A stretch of 12,824 nucleotides of DNA from a virus (Duplodnaviria; Heunggongvirae; Uroviricota; Caudoviricetes): the IMG/VR virus record IMGVR_UViG_2740892209_000012, one strand, 5' to 3'. The notes beneath the pieces were generated by a model. It saw nothing but the letters and a program-made list of their open reading frames with translations, was not told the origin of the DNA and ran no database searches. A program made the translations under genes and the position numbers. How positions within the stretch are numbered: position 1 is the stretch's first letter; every line of letters begins with the position of its first letter. Shown here one piece after another: positions 1 through 11,282 of the stretch.

Positions 1-170
1 GTTAAGCATCCACAGGCTGGTATCTGCAACCGATTATAACGGATGCTTAACGTAATGCGTGAAGTATGGACATATTTTATCAATTAGTGTTTTTTGCCGT
101 TTCATAATGTTTCAGATTGTTCATTATGTTTTTGATTATCAACGGATTTGCTATTTTCCTTGTTTCAGCT

Positions 171-227
171 TGTTTCACGTTGTAGCGCTTTGTGCAACGA
201 TCGGTGTAGTTAATGGTGTAGTTAATT
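171..227. repeat. attL: left copy of attachment-site direct repeat
   Basis: 192-227 matches 11247-11282 at 35 of 36 positions; similarity extends to 171-183 vs 11226-11238, with a divergent 8-bp patch between. Core contains tandem GGTGTAGTTAAT x2 (203-226). Confidence 0.75.
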
Positions 228-1478
228 GTGATGACCGGAATCAAAATTATGCGCAGAGCACTTAACAAACTGAGTGATACACAGCTAAGGAAAATCAACG
301 GCACACCCGCCCAAAAAACAGCCTTTCTTAATGACGGTGGAAACCTGAGCGTCAGGCATTCAACCAGCGGCCTTTTAACCTGGTATTTCACCTACAGGGC
401 CGGAACGGGAAGGGGAGCACGACCGGAACGGATTAAGCTGGGAAATTATCCTGATCTGAGTCTGAAAGCTGCCAGGGAAAAAGCGGCACAGTGTCGCGCT
501 TGGCTTGCTGAGGGGAAAAATCCACGTCATGAGATGAATTACACCGTACAGAAAGCGTTAAAGCCCGTAACGGTTGGCGATGCGCTTACCTACTGGCTTG
601 AGTCTTACGTAAAGGAAAACCGCGTGGATTATGCCGCCCTGAAAAAGCGCCTTAATAATCACGTAATACAGCACATTGGTGCTATGCCGCTGGATAAATG
701 CGAGCTACGGCACTGGCTGGCCTGTTTTGACCAGGTGGCAAAGCGAACGCCTGTTACTGCCGGATTCTTGCTACAGACGTGCAAACAGGCGCTTAAGTTC
801 TGCCGGAGGCGGCGCTATGCAATCAGCAACGTTCTTGATGATATGAGTGTGGCGGACGTTGGGAAAAAACCGGATATAAGCGAGCGTGTCTTAAGCACCA
901 AAGAACTTGGCGAATTATTGCAGGCACTGGACAAAAAAATATTTTCCCCTTACTACGTCGCACTAATCCGCCTCCTGATTGTTTTCGGATGCCGGACGGT
1001 AGAACTGAGGTTATCGGAGATCAGCGAGTGGGATTTTACCGAAATGCTCTGGACCGTGCCGAAAGAACACAGCAAAACGAAGGTGGCAATATTCCGGCCC
1101 ATACCGGAAGCAATACTGCCGTTCGTCACGCAGCTGGTGGAGCAGAACAGGCACACGGGCTTATTGCTGGGGGAAGTGAAACAGGAAACAAGCGTGTCGC
1201 AGTACGGCAGATTAGCGCACAGGAGGCTAAAACACCCTCACTGGTCACTGCATGACATCCGGCGCACCTTTACAACGATGCTGAACGATTTAGGCGTGGA
1301 TCCTCACGTCGTGGAGCAGCTTACAGGTCATCAGATGCCAGGGATGCAACGAGTCTATAACCATTCCCGTTATCTGGATGCGAAACGTGACGCGCTGGAT
1401 ATGTGGACGGAGCGGTTAGGGATACTGGCGGGAACACATGAAAACGTAACCACATTGCCAATAGCCAGAGAAATATAA
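228..1478 (+). CDS. int: Tyrosine recombinase / integrase, P4-family type
   Basis: 416-codon ORF. N-terminal arm-binding-like pattern (LNDGGNLSVR, WYFTYR, IKLGNYPDLSL..AR) and C-terminal catalytic signature (LHDIRRTF, GH......Y) typical of P4-like integrases. Begins right after the attL core. Start uncertain: GTG 228, ATG 231 or ATG 249. Confidence 0.9.
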   Translation: MMTGIKIMRRALNKLSDTQLRKINGTPAQKTAFLNDGGNLSVRHSTSGLLTWYFTYRAGTGRGARPERIKLGNYPDLSLKAAREKAAQCRAWLAEGKNPRHEMNYTVQKALKPVTVGDALTYWLESYVKENRVDYAALKKRLNNHVIQHIGAMPLDKCELRHWLACFDQVAKRTPVTAGFLLQTCKQALKFCRRRRYAISNVLDDMSVADVGKKPDISERVLSTKELGELLQALDKKIFSPYYVALIRLLIVFGCRTVELRLSEISEWDFTEMLWTVPKEHSKTKVAIFRPIPEAILPFVTQLVEQNRHTGLLLGEVKQETSVSQYGRLAHRRLKHPHWSLHDIRRTFTTMLNDLGVDPHVVEQLTGHQMPGMQRVYNHSRYLDAKRDALDMWTERLGILAGTHENVTTLPIAREI

Positions 1479-1843: not shown

Positions 1844-2032
1844 GTGTTAAGCACAGATCGCTTTATACGTGAAAAAGAATGTCAGCAACTTACAGGCCTG
1901 AGCCGCTCATGTCGGTACCGCCTGGAAAAAGCCGGACAATTCCCATCACGGCGTAAGCTGGGCGGTCGTTCCGTTGGCTGGTCTTTATCCGAAGTTTTGG
2001 CATGGAAGGACAGCTGCGAGGCAGTTCACTAA
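1844..2032 (+). CDS. alpA: AlpA/Vis-family HTH regulator (excision and transcription activator type)
   Basis: 62-aa ORF with GTG start preceded by AAGGGGGA Shine-Dalgarno; FIREKECQQLTGLSRSCRYRLEKAGQFPSRRKLGGRSVGWSLSEVLAW matches the AlpA-type small HTH pattern; position immediately downstream of int as in Gram-negative PICIs. Confidence 0.8.
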   Translation: MLSTDRFIREKECQQLTGLSRSCRYRLEKAGQFPSRRKLGGRSVGWSLSEVLAWKDSCEAVH

Positions 2033-2084: not shown

Positions 2085-3371
2085 ATGAATACTGGATATT
2101 CTCCCGAACAAGGGCGGGGCTTCGTTCGTCCTGAAAAACAGAATCTGCAAAATTTTGCCGAAATTATTCCGGTTATTTCCGGCCTTACTGGCGGGAGTGA
2201 AACCAATATTGTTAACGCCAGAGCGTTGCAGATGTTTGATGATAAAAAGGGAGTAAATTTAACTTACACCCCTGACGGCAATCAGAATATGAGCATTATC
2301 TCTGAGTCAGGTTTCTACAAACTAATAAAAACAAAAAGCGCCCCGTTGCCGGAGCGCCTTTGTGAACAATTAACCTACTGCGCAAAAAATGAATCTGAGC
2401 AGTGGGATTATATCAACCATGTGGAGAAGCGCCACAATTGCCGAATAACGGGCAAAACAAAGGCCACCCGCTACAGTGGCCCCTCGACACAAGCTACACG
2501 TTATCCCCAACGCATGAGCATTGCCAACAATGCCACATTTGCGGCTGGTGGGCAATGCAATCAGTCTGGTTCAGTTCGTTGCCATACCTGCAATGAGCGC
2601 TTTTCCCTGTACTCTTTAAGGAATTGCTCAAGGGCAAAAGCACATGGCGCGAATCTTTCTGATTCATGCTCTATCTTTCTGCGCCGTCTTTTCCGTGCCG
2701 GTGATAATGTTTTGGTCAATTCTTTATCGGTCATTGTGTTGTCCTGCATAGCAATGCGCCGTAGTTACTCACACCACGGCGCTGGTGATGGTTACTCCTG
2801 CTCTTTGGCCTTGCGGCGCTGGCGGCGTTTGATTTCGCCGCGCATGGCTGCGTTTATAAACTGTCCCGTGCTTTCGCCTTCTTCTTTCACGTTCTCCATG
2901 CCTTCAATAATTTCATGGGCAATACGTGCAGTTACAGATTGTGATTTTGCATTCTTTGGACCCGTTGCCATGTTTAACCCCTCATGTTTTTGGTGTAAGA
3001 CAATATACACGAAAAAAAAATATTTTGAAGGGTTGGCGTGTAAGACACCATTGTTTTACATTGTGTCTTACACCTTATTGATGAAAGGCACAGAAACGAC
3101 GAAACCCCGCACTGTAGGAGCAGTAACGGGGCTTCTAACCACCAACGATAGCAACAGTATCGAGGTAGCTATGAGAAATCATACCACACACCCGAAAGGG
3201 CGGGACTCGCACAACCTGAATAAATACATCTGGCGTTTTATCGCCCTGAGCACGGCACAACCGCGCGTGATTACCATTGAGGCCACCAGCGAACAGGAAG
3301 CACGCCAGCAATCTCCGGCTGGCTGCGTGATGGTATTTGCTGCCCGTATTCGTCAGGGGGTAGGCTTATGA
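2085..3371 (+). CDS. Questionable 428-codon open frame; probably not one gene. Only the N-terminal ~85 codons look protein-like (BRO-N/antirepressor-like ISESGFYKLI motif)
   Basis: No stop for 1287 nt, but the central part is Cys/Ser/Arg/Leu-rich junk-like translation, runs antisense to a well-supported small minus-strand gene (2792-2971), and reads through an AT-rich operator/promoter region (2993-3080). The 3' end coincides with the Icd-like ORF starting at 3171. Confidence 0.2.
   Translation: MNTGYSPEQGRGFVRPEKQNLQNFAEIIPVISGLTGGSETNIVNARALQMFDDKKGVNLTYTPDGNQNMSIISESGFYKLIKTKSAPLPERLCEQLTYCAKNESEQWDYINHVEKRHNCRITGKTKATRYSGPSTQATRYPQRMSIANNATFAAGGQCNQSGSVRCHTCNERFSLYSLRNCSRAKAHGANLSDSCSIFLRRLFRAGDNVLVNSLSVIVLSCIAMRRSYSHHGAGDGYSCSLALRRWRRLISPRMAAFINCPVLSPSSFTFSMPSIISWAIRAVTDCDFAFFGPVAMFNPSCFWCKTIYTKKKYFEGLACKTPLFYIVSYTLLMKGTETTKPRTVGAVTGLLTTNDSNSIEVAMRNHTTHPKGRDSHNLNKYIWRFIALSTAQPRVITIEATSEQEARQQSPAGCVMVFAARIRQGVGL
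2324..2357 (-). terminator. Candidate intrinsic terminator for leftward transcription
   Basis: Stem GCGCCCCG (2338-2345) / CGGAGCGC (2350-2357), loop TTGC; on the minus strand it is followed by TTTTTGTTTTTATT (complement of 2324-2337). Confidence 0.35.
2792..2971 (-). CDS. Small basic hypothetical protein (59 aa), candidate autoregulated regulator
   Basis: Minus-strand ATG at 2971 preceded by GAGGGG Shine-Dalgarno (6-nt spacing); protein-like K/E-rich composition (MATGPKNAKSQSVTARIAHEIIEG...KRRQRRKAKEQE); promoter-like -35 TTCAAA / -10 TATATT upstream with a GTGTAAGACA operator-like repeat overlapping the -10/start region. Confidence 0.5.
   Translation of the reverse strand: MATGPKNAKSQSVTARIAHEIIEGMENVKEEGESTGQFINAAMRGEIKRRQRRKAKEQE
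2993..3073. promoter_or_regulatory. Divergent promoter/operator region with three GTGTAAGACA half-sites
   Basis: GTGTAAGACA at 2993-3002; perfect 11-bp inverted repeat GTGTAAGACAC (3038-3048) / GTGTCTTACAC (3063-3073) with a 14-bp spacer; lies between the minus-strand small gene and the plus-strand Icd-like ORF; -35-like TTTACA at 3055-3060 on the plus strand. Confidence 0.55.
3171..3371 (+). CDS. Icd-like small protein (host cell division inhibitor-like family seen in P1/P4-type immunity regions)
   Basis: ATG 3171 preceded by GAGG (5-nt spacing); 66 aa; the YIWRFIALSTAQPRVITIEATSEQEARQQSPAGCVMVFAARIR pattern resembles recalled Icd-like proteins; stop overlaps the next start (ATGA at 3368-3371). 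Confidence 0.45.
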   Translation: MRNHTTHPKGRDSHNLNKYIWRFIALSTAQPRVITIEATSEQEARQQSPAGCVMVFAARIRQGVGL

Positions 3372-3598
3372 GCCAGGAAATCACACTACAACAGGCAGCA
3401 GAACGCGCCCACCAAATCGAAGTTATTTGCGCACTGGCAGAGGATTACCCTAGCATGATGACCGACAGCGAATCAGGGGCAATCATCGGCTTACTTAAAC
3501 GCCTTAGCGGTGAGGTCTGCGTATTCCTGAGCGATGAACAGGAAAGAAGAACGCTTATTTCTAACGAAAAAAAATGCGGAGGGGTACATGTGCAATAA
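3368..3598 (+). CDS. Hypothetical protein (76 aa)
   Basis: ATG 3368 with GGGGG Shine-Dalgarno; ATGA overlap with the upstream ORF; overlaps the next ORF start by 11 nt. Confidence 0.55.
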   Translation: MSQEITLQQAAERAHQIEVICALAEDYPSMMTDSESGAIIGLLKRLSGEVCVFLSDEQERRTLISNEKKCGGVHVQ

Positions 3599-4043: not shown

Positions 4044-4343
4044 ATGAAACTTAAATATTCTGGCTTAACTGCCAGTGGCAAAACTCGCACTAAATTCATG
4101 CGCGGTGATATTTACCGCGACCAGTACGGCGGCACGGTAATGATTAAGGGCGTGGAGGAACGGCGCGTAACCTACCGTCGTGAAGGCTACGAATATGATT
4201 GCGTGATGCCTGTTTATCAGTTCGATCGTGATTTTTCTCTGGTGCAGGCCGTACCGCGTAACGTGCCCACCAGCAGGGAGAAAGCACGCGCCAATATTCA
4301 GGAAATAAAAAAGATGCTTAACGTATTCAGGGGTAAGAAATGA
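4044..4343 (+). CDS. Hypothetical basic protein (99 aa), translationally coupled to the primase gene
   Basis: ATG 4044 with GGAGA Shine-Dalgarno; stop TGA 4341-4343 overlaps the primase ATG 4340 (ATGA). Confidence 0.65.
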   Translation: MKLKYSGLTASGKTRTKFMRGDIYRDQYGGTVMIKGVEERRVTYRREGYEYDCVMPVYQFDRDFSLVQAVPRNVPTSREKARANIQEIKKMLNVFRGKK

Positions 4344-6088
4344 AACTGGCACCGAACGTAAAAAAACAACCACGCGGAATAAAACACAAAGACACAGAGG
4401 TAATTATTTTCGCGGGTAGTGATGCGTGGTCACATGCAAAACAGTGGCAGGAGCAGGACGGCCCCGCATCCGGCGATAATGTGCCGCCTGTGTGGCTTGG
4501 GCCAAATCAGCTTGCCGAACTTGATGCGCTGAAAATTGTTCCGGATGGGAAAAAGCGCGTAAGGCTGTACCAGGCCGGAGAACTGGATTTGGTGGAGACC
4601 AAAAAGATTGGTCAGAAGCTGGCGGCGGCAGATATTCAGGACGCAAATTTTTACCCCGAAGGAATGCACGTCCAGAAGTGTGAAAACTGGCGGCGCTATC
4701 TGAATGCTGAGCGTGAAAATATTGCCGCAGGGCTTACCATGCCGGAGCAGAAAAATACGCAACTGGCACAAATGGCAGACAGTGAGCGCGCGCAGCTGCT
4801 TGCCGAGCGCTTTGATGGCGTTTGTGTGCATCCTGAAAGTGAAATCGTTCACGTATGGCGCGGCGGGGTATGGTGTCCGGTCAGCACAATGGAGCTGAGC
4901 CGCGAAATGGTGGCGATCTATTCAGAGCACAGGGCCACTTTCAGCAAGCGCGTAATCAATAACGCCGTGGAAGCGTTAAAAGTTATTGCCGAACCAATGG
5001 GCGAGCCGTCCGGCTATTTGCTGCCGTTCGCCAATGGTGCGCTTGACCTGAAAACGGGGGAATTTTCCCCGCACACGCCGGAGAACTGGATCACCACGCA
5101 CAACGGCATTGAGTACACGCCACCAGCACCAGGGGAGAACATCCGCGATAACGCGCCAAACTTTCATAAATGGCTTAAGCACGCAGCCGGAAAAGACCCG
5201 CGCAAGATGATGCGTATATGTGCCGCGCTGTACATGATTATGGCGAACCGGTACGACTGGCAGATGTTTATTGAGGCCACCGGAGACGGCGGGAGCGGTA
5301 AAAGTACATTCACACACATAGCCAGCCTTCTGGCAGGGAAACAGAACACGGTAAGCGCTGAAATGACATCGCTTGATGATGCTGGTGGACGTGCGCAGGT
5401 TGTCGGGAGTCGTCTTATCGTCCTGGCTGACCAGCCGAAATATACAGGCGAAGGAACGGGCATCAAGAAAATCACGGGCGGTGACCCCGTGGAAATTAAC
5501 CCGAAATACGAAAAGCGTTTCACGGCTGTAATCAGGGCGGTGGTGCTGGCGACCAACAATAACCCGATGATATTCACCGAACGGGCCGGAGGTGTGGCAC
5601 GTCGTCGCGTGATTTTCCGTTTCGACAATATCGTCAGTGAGGCCGAAAAAGACAGGGAGCTACCGGAAAAGATCGCGGCTGAAATCCCTGTCATTATCCG
5701 CCGATTGCTGGCGAACTTTACCGACCCTGAGAAGGCACGGGCTTTACTACTGGAACAGCGTGACGGTGATGAAGCACTGGCAATAAAGCAACAGACGGAT
5801 CCGGTTATTGAGTTTTGCCAGTTCCTGAATTTTCTGGAGGAAGCGCGCGGCCTGATGATGGGGGGCGGTGGCGATTCAGTGAAGTACACGACCAGGAACA
5901 GCCTTTACCGCGTCTATCTGGCGTTTATGGCATACGCAGGCAGGAGCAAACCGCTAAACGTAAATGACTTTGGAAAGGCTATGAAGCCTGCCGCAAAAGT
6001 TTACGGACATGAATATATTACGCGGAAAGTTAAGGGGGTAACGCAGACTAACGCAATAACAACAGACGAGTGCGACGCGTTTTTATAA
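4340..6088 (+). CDS. Primase/replication initiator with D5_N-like and SF3-helicase P-loop domains (P4 alpha C-terminal type; PICI pri-rep-like)
   Basis: 582-aa ORF; FANGALDLKTGEF motif (D5_N-like), Walker A GDGGSGKST, Walker B-like RLIVLADQ; immediately followed by an iteron array. Confidence 0.9.
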   Translation: MKLAPNVKKQPRGIKHKDTEVIIFAGSDAWSHAKQWQEQDGPASGDNVPPVWLGPNQLAELDALKIVPDGKKRVRLYQAGELDLVETKKIGQKLAAADIQDANFYPEGMHVQKCENWRRYLNAERENIAAGLTMPEQKNTQLAQMADSERAQLLAERFDGVCVHPESEIVHVWRGGVWCPVSTMELSREMVAIYSEHRATFSKRVINNAVEALKVIAEPMGEPSGYLLPFANGALDLKTGEFSPHTPENWITTHNGIEYTPPAPGENIRDNAPNFHKWLKHAAGKDPRKMMRICAALYMIMANRYDWQMFIEATGDGGSGKSTFTHIASLLAGKQNTVSAEMTSLDDAGGRAQVVGSRLIVLADQPKYTGEGTGIKKITGGDPVEINPKYEKRFTAVIRAVVLATNNNPMIFTERAGGVARRRVIFRFDNIVSEAEKDRELPEKIAAEIPVIIRRLLANFTDPEKARALLLEQRDGDEALAIKQQTDPVIEFCQFLNFLEEARGLMMGGGGDSVKYTTRNSLYRVYLAFMAYAGRSKPLNVNDFGKAMKPAAKVYGHEYITRKVKGVTQTNAITTDECDAFL

Positions 6089-7080: not shown

Positions 7081-7102
7081 GAGACAGAAGCCGGAGCAAT
7101 CC
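7081..7102 (+). terminator. Rho-independent terminator after ssb
   Basis: GCCGGA-GCAA-TCCGGC hairpin followed by TTTTTT. Confidence 0.7.
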
Positions 7103-7160
7103 GGCTTTTTTACGGGTCCTCCTGGCGGGGTGGGCCTGAACACGGGGCGGGAAGCGCGGA
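7103..7160 (+). other. Degenerate cos-like sequence (pseudo-cosQ/cosN), paralogous to the 9530-9606 region
   Basis: ACGGGTCCTCCTGG followed by GGGCGGGAAGCG (8 of 12 matches to cosN) and CGG-AAAAAAGCG; the preceding hairpin is near-identical to the one at 9530-9545. Confidence 0.35.
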
Positions 7161-7488: not shown

Positions 7489-7695
7489 ATGGCTGAAGAG
7501 AAAAAAGGCGGTGTTTCGGTGTACATAAGCCCCGAAATCGTGGAGGTGCTCAAGCAGCGCCACAAAAAAAACTATGAGGCTGGCGTGGCGGCTGGACTGG
7601 ATCCGCTGATGACGCCGGAGCCGTCGATAGGTTCACTTGTACGCTCTTATTTACTTGCGGCGCTTGGGATGCATAAAAATTATGGGGGTGAATAA
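7489..7695 (+). CDS. Small hypothetical protein (68 aa), possibly ribbon-helix-helix-like, first gene of the capsid operon
   Basis: ATG 7489 with AGAGGA upstream; GVSVYISPEIVEVLKQ resembles an RHH beta-strand/helix start; stop overlaps the MCP start (TAATG). Confidence 0.55.
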   Translation: MAEEKKGGVSVYISPEIVEVLKQRHKKNYEAGVAAGLDPLMTPEPSIGSLVRSYLLAALGMHKNYGGE

Positions 7696-8750
7696 TGGCA
7701 GGCAAAGCAACGGCACTTAACACTAACCAGCTTTTCATGTACCTGAATCGCGGGGATATTGCGGATTTTAAATTCAGCCCTCTGTTTACTACGCTGTTTT
7801 TCCCGAACGTGGCGACATTCAGCACGCAAAACATCATGCTGGATACCCTGGACATTGAAGAAGTCACCATGTCGGCGTTTTGTTCGCCTATGGTGGGTAG
7901 CCAGGTTCAGCGCGATAAAGGGTACGAAACCAGCACGATTAAACCTGGCTACATGAAGCCAAAGCACGAAATCGATCCAACGAAAACCATCATGCGCATG
8001 GCTGGAGAAGATCCGGCACAGCTTAACGACCCTACCTATCGCCGTATGCGCCTGATTACTGGCAATATGCGCCGCCAGATAAACGCCATAAAAGCGCGCG
8101 TGGAATGGCTGGCGGTAAATGCGGTAACGACCGGAAAAAACATCATTGAGGGCGAAGGCATAGAGCGCTATGAAATCGACTGGAAGATACCGGAAAAAAA
8201 CATCATAGAGCAGGCCGACGGGAAAAAATGGTCAGAGCAGGACAAAGAAACCCACGATCCAATCTATGATATCGAACTATACGCCGATCAGGCTGGTTGC
8301 CCCGCAAACGTCATGATTATGGGCGCTGAGGTATGGCGAACGTTACGCAGCTTTAAAAAATTCCGTGAGCTGTACGATCTTTCCCGTGGTTCAGAATCCG
8401 CCGCCGAACTGGCCTGTAAAAACCTGGGCGAAGTGGTGAGCTTTAAAGGCTATCTTGGTGATCTGGCCCTTATCGTCTATTCCGGCAAATACACTGACAG
8501 CGATGGTACCGAAAAATATTTCCTTGAGCCTGATTTGCTGGTCCTGGGCAACACCAACAATAAAGGGCTGGTGGCCTATGGTGCGATAATGGATCAGGAA
8601 GCGGTAAGAACGGGCGCAACACAAAACATGTTTTACCCGAAAAACTGGATTGAGGACGGCGATCCGGCGATTGAGTACGTGCAGACGCACAGCGCACCGC
8701 AGCCGGTTCCGGCAGATATTCGCAAATTTGTTACCGTCAAAATTGGTTAA
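7695..8750 (+). CDS. Major capsid protein, lambda gpE-like
   Basis: 351 aa; multiple blocks align with recalled lambda E (FKFSPLF..LFF, PGYMKPKHE, EDPAQLNDPTYRRMR, WSEQDK..HDP, RSFK, LVLGNT..GL..YG, YPKNW...GDPA, SAP). Confidence 0.9.
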   Translation: MAGKATALNTNQLFMYLNRGDIADFKFSPLFTTLFFPNVATFSTQNIMLDTLDIEEVTMSAFCSPMVGSQVQRDKGYETSTIKPGYMKPKHEIDPTKTIMRMAGEDPAQLNDPTYRRMRLITGNMRRQINAIKARVEWLAVNAVTTGKNIIEGEGIERYEIDWKIPEKNIIEQADGKKWSEQDKETHDPIYDIELYADQAGCPANVMIMGAEVWRTLRSFKKFRELYDLSRGSESAAELACKNLGEVVSFKGYLGDLALIVYSGKYTDSDGTEKYFLEPDLLVLGNTNNKGLVAYGAIMDQEAVRTGATQNMFYPKNWIEDGDPAIEYVQTHSAPQPVPADIRKFVTVKIG

Positions 8751-8761
8751 CGGGGGATTCT

Positions 8762-9097
8762 ATGGACACTCCATACATTGAGTTATTTGCAGGCAGTCAG
8801 CAGGTCGCCACGACGCTGGTACATTTTGCCGCTGATGCTGGCGTTATTCAGGAATTTACCCCGCTGATGCTGGCGGACAATGGCGAGTTTAAGCCGTGGG
8901 ATGGTAAGGAATCTGGCAAGGCTGTTTATCTGACCTCGTACCCTGTGGACACGTCAAAGCAGAAATCAGCACAGTGTTACAAGACGGGGATATTCAATAT
9001 TGCCGCCGTTAACTGGCCTGAGAGCGTCGACACCGATGCGAAAAAATGCGCCGCCTTTGCGGGTTCCGGCGTATCCGTTCAGCCGCTGGCCCGATAA
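8762..9097 (+). CDS. Head decoration protein, lambda gpD-like
   Basis: 111 aa; C-terminal YKTGIFNIAAVNWPESVDTDAKKCAAFAGSGVSVQ resembles lambda D ([34 protein letters not shown]); GGGGGA Shine-Dalgarno; lies downstream of the E-like gene (order reversed relative to lambda). Confidence 0.8.
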   Translation: MDTPYIELFAGSQQVATTLVHFAADAGVIQEFTPLMLADNGEFKPWDGKESGKAVYLTSYPVDTSKQKSAQCYKTGIFNIAAVNWPESVDTDAKKCAAFAGSGVSVQPLAR

Positions 9098-9109
9098 GCA
9101 GGGGGAACG

Positions 9110-9523
9110 ATGGCAACGAATGAAAGCATCATGACGCTACCGCTGGCGAGTAAATTTAAAGCCGAAGCGCGGGCAATGGCTGACAGAGGTTTATCAACCT
9201 ATGAGGCCGTATATCAACTAAACAAACTGGAAGAGCAGGACAAGCCGCGCGCTGATGCGATTATGGCGCTTCATGAGCATAAAGACTATCAGCCGCTGTT
9301 GCGTGCAATGGCAAACGTGCCTTGTATCGATGTTGGTACGGCTAAAAGCATCCTTAGCATGACCATAGAGCAGGAGCGCCCAAAGGTTGCACCAGAGCTT
9401 ACCGCAGCCTTTGAAAACTTTATGGACATGCACAGCCCGCAAGCCGTATCAGCTGGCATGGCATACGATGGCAGAAACCAGGGCGATGACGGCGACATCG
9501 ATCGCATACTGAAAACCATCTGA
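9110..9523 (+). CDS. Hypothetical protein (137 aa), last gene of the capsid operon
   Basis: ATG 9110 with AGGGGGAA Shine-Dalgarno; protein-like composition; followed by a strong terminator. No family recognised. Confidence 0.7.
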   Translation: MATNESIMTLPLASKFKAEARAMADRGLSTYEAVYQLNKLEEQDKPRADAIMALHEHKDYQPLLRAMANVPCIDVGTAKSILSMTIEQERPKVAPELTAAFENFMDMHSPQAVSAGMAYDGRNQGDDGDIDRILKTI

Positions 9524-9529
9524 GACAAG

Positions 9530-9552
9530 GCCGGAGAAATCCGGCTTTTTTT
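9530..9552 (+). terminator. Rho-independent terminator immediately upstream of cos
   Basis: GCCGGA-GAAA-TCCGGC hairpin followed by TTTTTTT. Confidence 0.7.
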
Positions 9553-9640
9553 ACGGGTCCTTTCCGGCATATGGACCCGTTACGGGGCGGCGACCTCGCG
9601 GTTTTTCGCTATTTATGAGCCTTTTCAGGGGGGTGGTGGT
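9553..9640 (+). other. Lambda-type cohesive end site (cosQ-cosN-proximal cosB), forward orientation
   Basis: ACGGGTCCTTTCCGG (cosQ-like, matches recalled lambda right end), GTTACG then GGGCGGCGACCT (9585-9596, identical to the lambda 12-nt cohesive end), then CGCGGTTTTTCGCTATTTATGA (near-identical to the lambda left end start); located about 135 bp upstream of the Nu1-like gene. Confidence 0.8.
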
Positions 9641-9729
9641 GGTTTTGTTGTTTGCTCTATCTTTATGAATGAAAAGGGAAAGATGCAAACAATACACCAA
9701 CCTGAAGCAGTAATTAAGTTGGTGTATTA

Positions 9730-10272
9730 ATGAAATCGCACCTGATGAACAAAAAAAACATGGCGAAAAGCTGCCGTGTAAGTGCGACAGCGTTCGACAA
9801 GTGGGGAGTGACTCCCGTTGAACGTAAAGGCCGTGAGGCGTTTTACGATGTTGCCAGCGTGATAGACAATAGGGTTAACAATGCAATTAGCCAGCTTACA
9901 AACGACAAAGGCGATATTGATGATGATGAACTCTTACGAGTCAGGATCAGATTACTGACAGCACAGGCGGAGGCGCAGGAACTTAAAAACGAGCGCGATC
10001 GCGGTGACGTGATTGATACTGAGTTTTGCCTGTACGCGCTTTCAAAGCTGGCGAGTCAGATTTCATCAATCATGGACAGCCTCCCGCTTACTATGCAAAG
10101 GAGCTTCCCACAGATTACCCCCGCCATGCTGGATAGGCTTAAAAGGGAAGTGGTTAAAGCCTGTAATGCCAGTGCCAGAGTTGCCGACAACCTCCCACAG
10201 ATACTGGCTGATTACTTGAAAGAAACAACCGGAAACGTACCGGAAAAGTTGCTACAGAAGAAAGGCGAGTAA
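9730..10272 (+). CDS. Terminase small subunit, lambda Nu1-like
   Basis: 180 aa; LTAQAEAQELKNERDRGDVIDTEFCLYALSKLASQISSIMDSLPLTMQRSFPQ aligns with recalled lambda Nu1 (LTRAQADAQELKNARDSAEVVETAFCTFVLSRIAGEIASILDGLPLSVQRRFPE); the N-terminal NKK... region matches the Nu1 N-terminus; start may be ATG 9730 or ATG 9745. Confidence 0.85.
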   Translation: MKSHLMNKKNMAKSCRVSATAFDKWGVTPVERKGREAFYDVASVIDNRVNNAISQLTNDKGDIDDDELLRVRIRLLTAQAEAQELKNERDRGDVIDTEFCLYALSKLASQISSIMDSLPLTMQRSFPQITPAMLDRLKREVVKACNASARVADNLPQILADYLKETTGNVPEKLLQKKGE

Positions 10273-10274
10273 CA

Positions 10275-10500
10275 GACGCGCAATTATTGAACAAAACTGA
10301 GAAACGACATGAAAGCGTCATAAATCGCCATTTTAGATGATTACCGTGTCGTTTCTTTTTATTGTGTATCTATTTAAAAACAAATAGTTATGTTCGAGAA
10401 GTACCGACATGCTTTTTCCAGAAAAATTTTCATAAACAGATAAAAACCGCGAGGTCGCCGCCCCGTAACGGGCCATAATTCCAGGAAGGACCCGACGACA
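10275..10500 (-). other. Second lambda-type cos site in inverted orientation with extended lambda-like cosB
   Basis: The reverse complement reads cosQ-like CGGGTCCTTCCTGG, then GTTACG-GGGCGGCGACCT-CGCGGTTTTT (cosN on plus strand at 10452-10463), then TTTATGAAAATTTTT, CATAACTATTTGTTTTTAAATAGATA, AAAAAGAAACGACACGG and GTCGTTTCTCAGTTTTG, mirroring recalled lambda cosB blocks (R3/R2/R1 region). It shares a 36-bp inverted repeat with cos1 (9571-9606 vs 10442-10477, 1 mismatch). Confidence 0.7.
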
Positions 10501-10527: not shown

Positions 10528-10809
10528 ATGACAGAAGCCGAAATACTGCGATTAATCCGCCGCGTTGCCGGAATCAGCCAGCAGGCCGACGAACAGACCA
10601 CGCAGCCGGACAGCGTGACCGCCGAAAATTATGTTCGTGTGGTTGCTGAGGTGATTCGCCGTAATGGTATCCAGCTTAATGATGTGGATATGCGCAACAT
10701 ACGGATCCGCGTTCTTGAAATGCTGGCCTACAATCGCCGCGTGGCACTGTATCGGGAAACGGAGAAAATTACGTACCACTGGAAGAAGCCGGAGCGGTTG
10801 CGGCGGTAA
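10528..10809 (+). CDS. Hypothetical protein (93 aa)
   Basis: ATG 10528 with GGGGG Shine-Dalgarno; protein-like composition; starts 28 bp beyond the cos2 cosQ-like end. No family recognised. Confidence 0.6.
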   Translation: MTEAEILRLIRRVAGISQQADEQTTQPDSVTAENYVRVVAEVIRRNGIQLNDVDMRNIRIRVLEMLAYNRRVALYRETEKITYHWKKPERLRR

Positions 10810-10977: not shown

Positions 10978-11225
10978 ACAATCCCCCATTGGGGGAGGCT
11001 GGGCGGCCTGCTGTGGGCTTTTCCACCATTGGTGGAAAGGCGCACATCTGGATCATCATTACGGTGATCAAGGGTATGTAAAACCCACCAGCCTGATTGA
11101 CATTTAACCGGAAAAAAGCCAGGTAGCCCCGTTATGGGGATCCCCATATCGACATTAACGCCCCTCATGAATTGGCGCGCTTCCCCCTGGAAAGATGACC
11201 CGCCTGTATATTTCTTGTGTCTATT

Positions 11226-11282
11226 TGTTCCACGTTGTTTCATACAGTGCAACGATCGGTGTAGTTAATGGTGTAGTCAATT
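11226..11282. repeat. attR: right copy of attachment-site direct repeat
   Basis: 11247-11282 matches 192-227 (35 of 36); the upstream block 11226-11238 matches 171-183. Confidence 0.75.

Follow-up and report, generated by a model that had tools for sequence, protein, structure and literature searches.

A small-terminase variant of the EcCICFT073-family packaging module between two opposed lambda-type cos sites

The closest described relative of the DNA analysed here is EcCICFT073, a phage-inducible chromosomal island (PICI) whose pair of cos sites, named cos1 and cos2, flanks the gene rppA in inverted orientation; they were studied in 2018-2019, and both have been cloned, deleted and swapped experimentally (Fillol-Salom et al., PMC6092414, PMC6739421). 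Each cloned cos supports plasmid transduction by lambda and phi80 (2018 ISME J, PMC6092414), and transfer of the island is strongly reduced by deletion of cos1 and abolished by the double deletion (PMC6092414). The cosB of cos1 is read by a heterocomplex of RppA (c1503) and the small terminase (TerS) of the helper phage (2019 Mol Cell, PMC6739421), and the cosB sequences of the island were termed 'completely divergent' in both papers (PMC6092414, PMC6739421). Helper-induced excision, replication and high-frequency transfer have been demonstrated experimentally for EcCICFT073 only (PMC6092414). The subject of the present analysis is a 12,824-nucleotide stretch, referred to as the window (IMG/VR record IMGVR_UViG_2740892209_000012, Caudoviricetes), in which a gene for a small terminase lies between two opposed cos sites; cos-site function has been demonstrated for their EcCICFT073 homologues only (PMC6092414, PMC6739421). 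Judged by its gene content and position, the locus is a TerS variant of the EcCICFT073-family dual-cos packaging module, carried by a PICI at roxA/phoQ. The first-pass annotation of this DNA, which was made from the letters alone, knew of no satellite with such an arrangement, a statement that the EcCICFT073 work contradicts. Two-cos satellites are an already known and experimentally studied kind; the type of cos2, the cosB of cos1 with its TerS, and the inversion isomers described below appear to add to the published work.

EcCICFT073 and the window are syntenic (88% coverage, 95% identity) and share the roxA/phoQ site. In both, one specificity gene lies between opposed cos cores, preceded by the gpE-like, gpD-like and 137-aa genes and followed by the 93-aa gene. 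In CFT073, cosN1 (+) is upstream of rppA and cosN2 (-) downstream, in agreement with the sequences in the supplements of the papers. Outside the cores the two islands are near-identical, whereas between them they are unrelated. Of the family traits, the integrase, att repeats, a unit size within about 10-15 kb, alpA, pri-rep and a helper-type cos are present in the window, but the Rpp between the cos sites is absent and its slot is filled by a TerS of the Nu1 family; the slot gene product is an Rpp of 144 aa in EcCICFT073 and a Nu1-type TerS of 180 aa in the window, with no detectable similarity between the two. The cosB of cos1 (cosB1) has GGTGGT-type elements in the window, in contrast with the ACCACCACC-type R3-PICI of EcCICFT073, and the cosB of cos2 (cosB2) is of the lambda/PhiR5 type in the former and of the PhiR12 type in the latter. 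The predicted mechanism differs as well, being direct recruitment of the helper's large terminase (TerL) in the window and hijacking of the helper TerS in EcCICFT073, whose Rpp has no TerL-binding tail and, for that reason, borrows the helper TerS.

The islands of IHE3034 and 18098 also encode a TerS (PMC6092414). The cos1-terS-cos2 stretch of EcCIIHE3034 is 98.9% identical to that of the window, although EcCIIHE3034 and EcCI18098 have another integration site (cspD-clpS) and other left-hand genes; a literature search turned up no account of how they package their DNA, nor of their cos sites or cosB types. With lambda and N15 the window has cosQ, cosN and I2 in common, and the phage order cos-cosB-terS is matched by cos1 and terS. 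The whole R3-I1-R2-R1 cosB of lambda is matched by cos2, while the window's R3' motif and the DNA-binding domain of its TerS are similar to their counterparts in N15, a phage with an R3-only cosB (PMC9026076). Unlike both phages, the window has no terL and no morphogenetic genes beyond the gpE-like and gpD-like ones, and it has two, arguably three, cos sites in 11 kb, the second of which is directed into the 3' end of terS. A like concept, the use of the island's own small terminase, which redirects the helper TerL, or of the helper's cos, is known from Staphylococcus aureus pathogenicity islands (SaPIs), in the SaPI TerS (pac) and in the cos islands SaPIbov5 and SaPIbov4, the last of which reportedly has a pair of putative cos sites. 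The sequences of the S. aureus SaPIs are unrelated and belong with another phage group; the island in the window appears to join both strategies in one cassette.

The cosN sequence GGGCGGCGACCT occurs exactly twice in the window, once on each strand (positions in Table 1), with a start-to-start distance of 867 bp. By chance, 0.09 matches with at most one mismatch are expected, and two or more were found in none of 200 shuffles. The cosQ heptamer GGGTCCT is present in both copies at lambda spacing and an I2-like sequence (CGCGGTTTTT..TTTATGA) lies downstream of both cosN copies; cos1 and cos2 alike have a lambda-type cosQ, a 12-nt cosN and I2 at lambda spacing. The two cores form an inverted repeat of 72 nt, 82% complementary, in which the longest perfect run is 31 bp (9576-9606). 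An assembly artefact or a collapsed repeat is ruled out by the recurrence of the 1.2-kb cassette stretch, at 80% coverage or more, in 484 of 5426 complete E. coli genomes, and by its presence in 30 independent IMG/VR contigs. Taken with the CFT073 comparison, these features indicate that the packaging module is a self-contained, exchangeable cassette bounded by two opposed lambda-type cos cores (cosQ-cosN-I2). The exact coordinates and the cosQ heptamers bear out the first-pass annotation in its claim of two opposed, complete cosN sequences with cosQ flanks 867 bp apart, and so does the 180-aa open reading frame (ORF) in its claim of a Nu1-like terS between them; the inverted repeat it had reported is real, but the length of 36 bp that it gave is not, the longest perfect run being 31 bp. 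Its idea of an exchangeable terS cassette gains comparative support from the window and CFT073, and a cruciform-forming segment, which it had also considered, finds none.

The two sites differ in what follows the core. cos1 matches lambda for 22 nt past cosN and then diverges, close to the 25 bp or so first proposed. The phage-type R3-I1-R2-R1 series is not present at cos1, which has elements of its own instead, R3' (GGTGGTTTTGTTGTTTGC), R2' (reverse complement GGTTGGTGTATTGTTTGC) and R1' (GTTGGTGTATT); these are mutually related and are laid out forward-reverse-forward, as are R3, R2 and R1 of lambda. Among non-coding blocks, R3' and R2' show the strongest conservation in a set of 48 distinct sequences taken from related loci, and the distance from cos1 to terS is 133 nt in nearly all of the 80 related loci with a recognisable cosN. 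The GGT-rich block that includes R3' starts at bp 48 from cosN, which is the position of R3 in lambda, N15 and the Rpp islands (Murialdo & Feiss 2022, PMC9026076). The R3 of N15 (GAGGTTGTTGTTT) has the motif GTTGTTGTTT in common with R3', and shares GGTTGTTGTTT with it at a similar distance from cosN (PMC9026076). No description of a tripartite private cosB at cos1 paired with a mosaic TerS was found in the literature search.

Two further observations concern cos1. The R3' region at 9632-9655 reads GGTGGTGGTGG, and the core proposed for the R3-PICI of the Rpp islands, ACCACCACC, is its reverse complement at an equal distance from cosN (CFT073 cos1 bp 48-65); TerS and Rpp, which are unrelated specificity proteins, may thus read a related motif on opposite strands. 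In a group of IMG/VR loci (L055-L066), cosB1 and terS are kept (88% nucleotide identity), but cosN is GGGCGGAAGGCG or GGGCGTCAGGCG and lies about 145 nt upstream of terS, which suggests that the part of cos1 read by TerL tracks other helper lineages while the part read by TerS is fixed. These loci were considered as true phages that donate cosB1 and terS, a notion that was dropped in view of their island-like neighbours, with terS followed by a gene like the 93-aa one and no terL.

The terS product scores 83 bits against Pfam Phage_Nu1 (PF07471; cutoff 30), and its full-length identity is 46% to N15 gp1, 41% to PhiR5_1 Nu1 and 35% to lambda Nu1. The alignment spans residues 3-180 of lambda Nu1 (181 aa), with equivalent spans in N15 gp1 and PhiR5_1 Nu1, and takes in the region homologous to the C-terminal TerL-binding tail of Nu1. 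The identity is unevenly distributed: residues 1-60 are 53% identical to N15, 32% to lambda, 26% to PhiR5_1 and 9% to PhiR12, while for residues 126-166 the values are 51% for PhiR5_1, 44% for PhiR12 and 32% each for N15 and lambda. By these alignments the protein is a mosaic of an N15-like DNA-binding domain and a PhiR5/PhiR12-like C-terminus. A partner terL is not found beside terS or elsewhere in the island, the next gene being that of the 93-aa protein. Homology of TerS with Rpp was considered and rejected (BLASTP against RppA, E = 1.4); a PDB sequence search gave no match, RppC included.

On the minus strand, cos2 aligns with lambda and, better, with PhiR5_1 (82.9% identity over 150 nt) through R3, I1, R2 and R1, up to about 25 nt before the terS stop codon, and the integration host factor (IHF)-like site at 10378-10390 matches the consensus with one mismatch. 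This agrees with the earlier claim that cos2 has the more lambda-like cosB and points into the 3' end of terS. The cos2 of CFT073 matches another group of phages, the PhiR12 phages, in which it is 93.3% identical to the cos over 179 nt, through the last R element; in these phages the region resembling CFT073 cos2 lies directly upstream of Nu1. In other relatives the opposed slot holds a CAGATCC-type cosB, a phi4/21-type cosB or a cos-like element of the type found in Shiga toxin (Stx) phages, and across relatives the slot is either deleted or occupied by one of at least five phage cos types. A survey of 74 IMG/VR loci, in which TerS is 81-100% identical and the downstream sequence is present, gave 30 intact opposed sites, 10 of the Stx type, 2 with a degenerate cosN2, 9 truncated inside cosN and 23 with none. 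As far as these comparisons go, cos2 is no fixed part of the module; its slot varies, can be dispensed with and matches the cos types of phages. The literature search yielded no description of cos2 as a complete cos of the helper type that comes from a diverse range of phage cos types.

The Stx type of cos occurs in the window itself, as a third cos-like element some distance to the left of the cassette (cosN-like sequence GGGCGGGAAGCG). Its identity to the region between Rz and terS in Stx2-converting phages and VT1-Sakai is about 90% over about 150 nt (mEp460, 77%). It aligns with cos1 and cos2 through cosQ, lies after ssb and is preceded by a copy of the cos1 terminator hairpin (7090-7111 compared with 9530-9551). 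IHE3034 and JNE181771 retain the element and the CFT073 locus lacks it, and the same type fills the cos2 slot, inverted, in the 10 IMG/VR loci counted above. The view that the element is a decayed relic was dropped, given its identity to the Stx2-phage region.

The cassette is found in both orientations in nature. Complete genomes were queried with a chimera that runs from the left flank and cosN into cosB2 and then into the 3' end of terS in antisense. Full-length, single-piece matches show a flipped TerS-type cassette in 6 complete genomes, compared with 484 in the orientation of the window, and the annotation confirms that terS and the genes at its flanks, which are unchanged, lie on opposite strands. 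The RppA-type cassette is flipped in 24 complete genomes, which are probably one clone, and is in the CFT073 orientation in 68. In WP4-S17-ESBL-08 (locus L010) rppA is reversed, while the RppA, gpD-like and 93-aa proteins are identical to those of CFT073. The CAGATCC-type cosB2 is flipped in JNE181771-type genomes, and several IMG/VR loci have it in direct orientation; none of about 70 IMG/VR loci holds a flipped cassette. On this distribution the flips arose in at least three independent events, and the segment had indeed been suspected of being invertible in the first-pass annotation. A literature search found no mention of natural inversion isomers of the cassette.

The breakpoints of the flips are inside the repeat. 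In L010 the cos2-type spacer between cosQ and cosN is present in both arms (2670-2712 and 3438-3480), which suggests homologous recombination with gene conversion and a concerted evolution of the cos cores. Cleavage of both cos sites followed by religation, attractive in that the inner fragment would carry the same 5' overhang at each end, finds no support as the sole route, as the L010 spacers imply crossover or gene conversion outside cosN; the breakpoints of locus L008 are within the 31-bp core and are uninformative on this point. Because both arms hold a full cosQ-cosN-I2, each isomer retains two complete cos sites, and a flip should be roughly neutral.

The reading that we favour, and consider probable, is that cos1 is a private packaging site of the island and cos2 an accessory, helper-matched one, the two being opposed so that cross-termination is avoided. 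The island TerS would bind R3' and R2' of cosB1 through its N15-like N-terminal domain and recruit the helper TerL through its PhiR5/PhiR12-like C-terminal tail; a cut at cosN1 would then start rightward packaging around the excised and replicated island. An unmodified helper terminase of the matching lambdoid type could start at cos2 and package leftward. Termination of the lambda type needs cosQ-cosN-I2 in the direction of travel. By analogy with lambda, the opposed arrangement would keep a terminase that has started at either site from ending its run at the second one, and cross-termination between sites in direct orientation would delete or duplicate the 0.87-kb cassette. Recombination between the cores would flip the cassette without destroying either cos, because they are near-identical and opposed. 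Of the possible meanings offered at first, two cosB specificities receive comparative support from the R-like elements of cosB1, the N15-like TerS domain and the lambdoid cosB2, and bidirectional packaging would follow from the geometry of the sites.

Several points weigh against this reading. cos2 is not essential, being missing or truncated in 32 of the 74 related IMG/VR loci, and in EcCICFT073 its deletion raises the transfer mediated by lambda and phi80 (PMC6092414), so that cos2 may be neutral or even costly with non-cognate helpers. The IHE3034 island shows almost no transfer from its native strain (PMC6092414). R3' of the island is 6-9 bp farther from cosN than R3 of N15, which makes the N15 analogy approximate; a sigma-70 promoter scan of the cassette gave no hit and a terminator-like hairpin stands just upstream of cosQ1; and the third cos-like element is in direct orientation relative to cos1, an arrangement compatible with the argument about cross-termination only if the same TerL leaves its divergent cosN uncut. 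The gain in EcCICFT073 transfer upon cos2 deletion fits a PhiR12-type cosB that is unmatched to lambda and phi80.

The loss of cos2 from so many loci, together with the two in which its cosN is degenerate and the gain upon its deletion, can also be taken to mean that cos2 is a non-functional recombination scar, a passenger piece of helper-phage cos acquired by illegitimate or cos-mediated recombination, and that only cos1 and terS matter; the slot also changes its type from one island to a close relative, as a hot spot of recombination would be expected to do, which points the same way. We regard this as unlikely. Where cos2 is present it is complete (cosQ, 12 of 12 cosN positions, I2, R3, I1-like, R2 and R1) and 83-93% identical to the cos of extant phages, the cos2 of EcCICFT073, when cloned, supports plasmid transduction and loss of both sites is worse than loss of cos1 alone, and the occupation of the slot by at least five phage types, always opposed to cos1, argues for repeated retention over a single accident. 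That cos2 serves mainly for interference, as a high-copy decoy that titrates the helper TerS and terminase off phage DNA, is suggested by its helper-type cosB and by the high copy number that PICIs reach and their interference with helper packaging (PMC6739421), but seems to us quite improbable: interference by EcCICFT073 maps to rppA, with deletion of c1503 restoring plaque formation, and cos2 is often lost. Even with a decoy, an intact cos with terminase bound to it would be cut and the island packaged, which makes a decoy hard to separate from a public site.

The inverted repeat around a single gene, found in both orientations for two cassette types, and the terminator upstream of the left arm, through which expression could depend on orientation, would suit a programmed invertible switch (phase variation) for terS or rpp expression or for the direction of packaging. 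We hold this to be very improbable, since the repeat is the cos core itself and no invertase or dedicated recombinase is near it, the sole recombinase being the att integrase about 8 kb off; the flipped forms are moreover rare in the counts given above, and the arms of L010 resemble the outcome of homologous recombination with gene conversion and not of site-specific exchange. Returning to the private and accessory sites, a wider and more tentative version, possible but one we would not rely on, is a modular strategy with multiple cos sites: a private cos1 read with TerS or Rpp, an exchangeable opposed slot that captures the complete cos of circulating lambdoid helpers, and a Stx-type cos elsewhere. 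The content of the slot would then set the range of helpers, and the opposed geometry would prevent cross-termination and permit flips and swaps at the shared cores.

The island unit of the window is 11.06 kb long and lies between 76-nt direct repeats, 80% identical with a perfect core, at a spacing of 11055 bp. The order of its genes is integrase, alpA, D5-type primase, ssb, gpE-like, gpD-like, 137-aa, cos-terS-cos and 93-aa, followed by the chromosomal phoQ. An ORF and Pfam survey found no lysis, tail or terL genes in the 11-kb unit. The 93-aa gene adjoins the cassette also in CFT073, IHE3034 and the IMG/VR loci. The 137-aa protein weakly matches a family of head maturation proteases over the C-terminal part of the latter, and its homologue is annotated as a head-tail connector in one RefSeq genome; PDB sequence searches with the 137-aa and 93-aa proteins gave no match. 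An ORF of 428 aa at 2085-3371 has no counterpart at the same position in CFT073 and no Pfam or PADLOC match. The ORF matches a PHROG 'transcriptional repressor' family in its C-terminal 90 residues and, weakly, Ant/BRO-like anti-repressors in its N-terminus, and could be a fusion gene of accessory or regulatory function.

Table 1. Positions of the cassette and of the other island features in the window.
Feature	Position	Strand	Details
attL-side direct repeat	152-227	+	76 nt, paired with 11207-11282
Tyrosine integrase	228-1478	+	Pfam Arm-DNA-bind_3, Phage_integrase
alpA regulator	1844-2032	+	Pfam Phage_AlpA, 65.8 bits (cutoff 21)
pri-rep primase/replicase	4340-6088	+	Pfam D5_N, DUF5906, Pox_D5
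Third cos-like element, other phage type	7107-7260	+	cosQ 7114-7120; cosN-like GGGCGGGAAGCG 7145-7156
gpE-like capsid gene	7695-8750	+	Pfam Phage_cap_E; within the block 7695-9523
gpD-like decoration gene	8762-9097	+	Pfam HDPD
137-aa gene	9110-9523	+	protein matches phrog_1999 (function not known)
Terminator-like hairpin, directly upstream of cosQ1	9527-9552	+	GCCGGAGAAATCCGGC then T7; -16.1 kcal/mol, z = -4.2
cos1 core, left arm of repeat	9554-9625	+	cosQ 9555-9561; cosN 9585-9596; I2-like 9597-9618
cosB1, island-specific	9619-9729	+	R3' 9638-9655 (+); R2' 9685-9702 (-); R1' about 9716-9728 (+)
terS, Nu1-family small terminase	9730-10272	+	180 aa; Pfam Phage_Nu1, phrog_57
cosB2, lambdoid phage-type	10273-10451	-	R3 10398-10415; I1-like 10378-10390; R2 10344-10361; R1 10295-10312
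cos2 core, right arm of repeat	10423-10494	-	cosN 10452-10463; cosQ 10487-10493
93-aa conserved gene, right cassette flank	10528-10809	+	phrog_1561, no assigned function
attR-side direct repeat	11207-11282	+	pairs with 152-227

PICIs carry virulence and defence genes between enterobacteria. If the slot tracks the cosB types of helpers, the helper range of an island would be readable from its sequence, and a puzzle in the published work would be resolved, namely the retention by EcCICFT073 of a cos2 that reduces transfer by lambda: with a cosB of the PhiR12 type, lambda would simply be an unsuitable helper. For the TerS-type cassette, a dependence on the helper TerL and not on the helper TerS is predicted, unlike for Rpp. 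The flipped isomers show the cos sites themselves to be substrates of recombination, which matters for how these islands are annotated and for how PICI- or cosmid-based delivery vehicles are designed.

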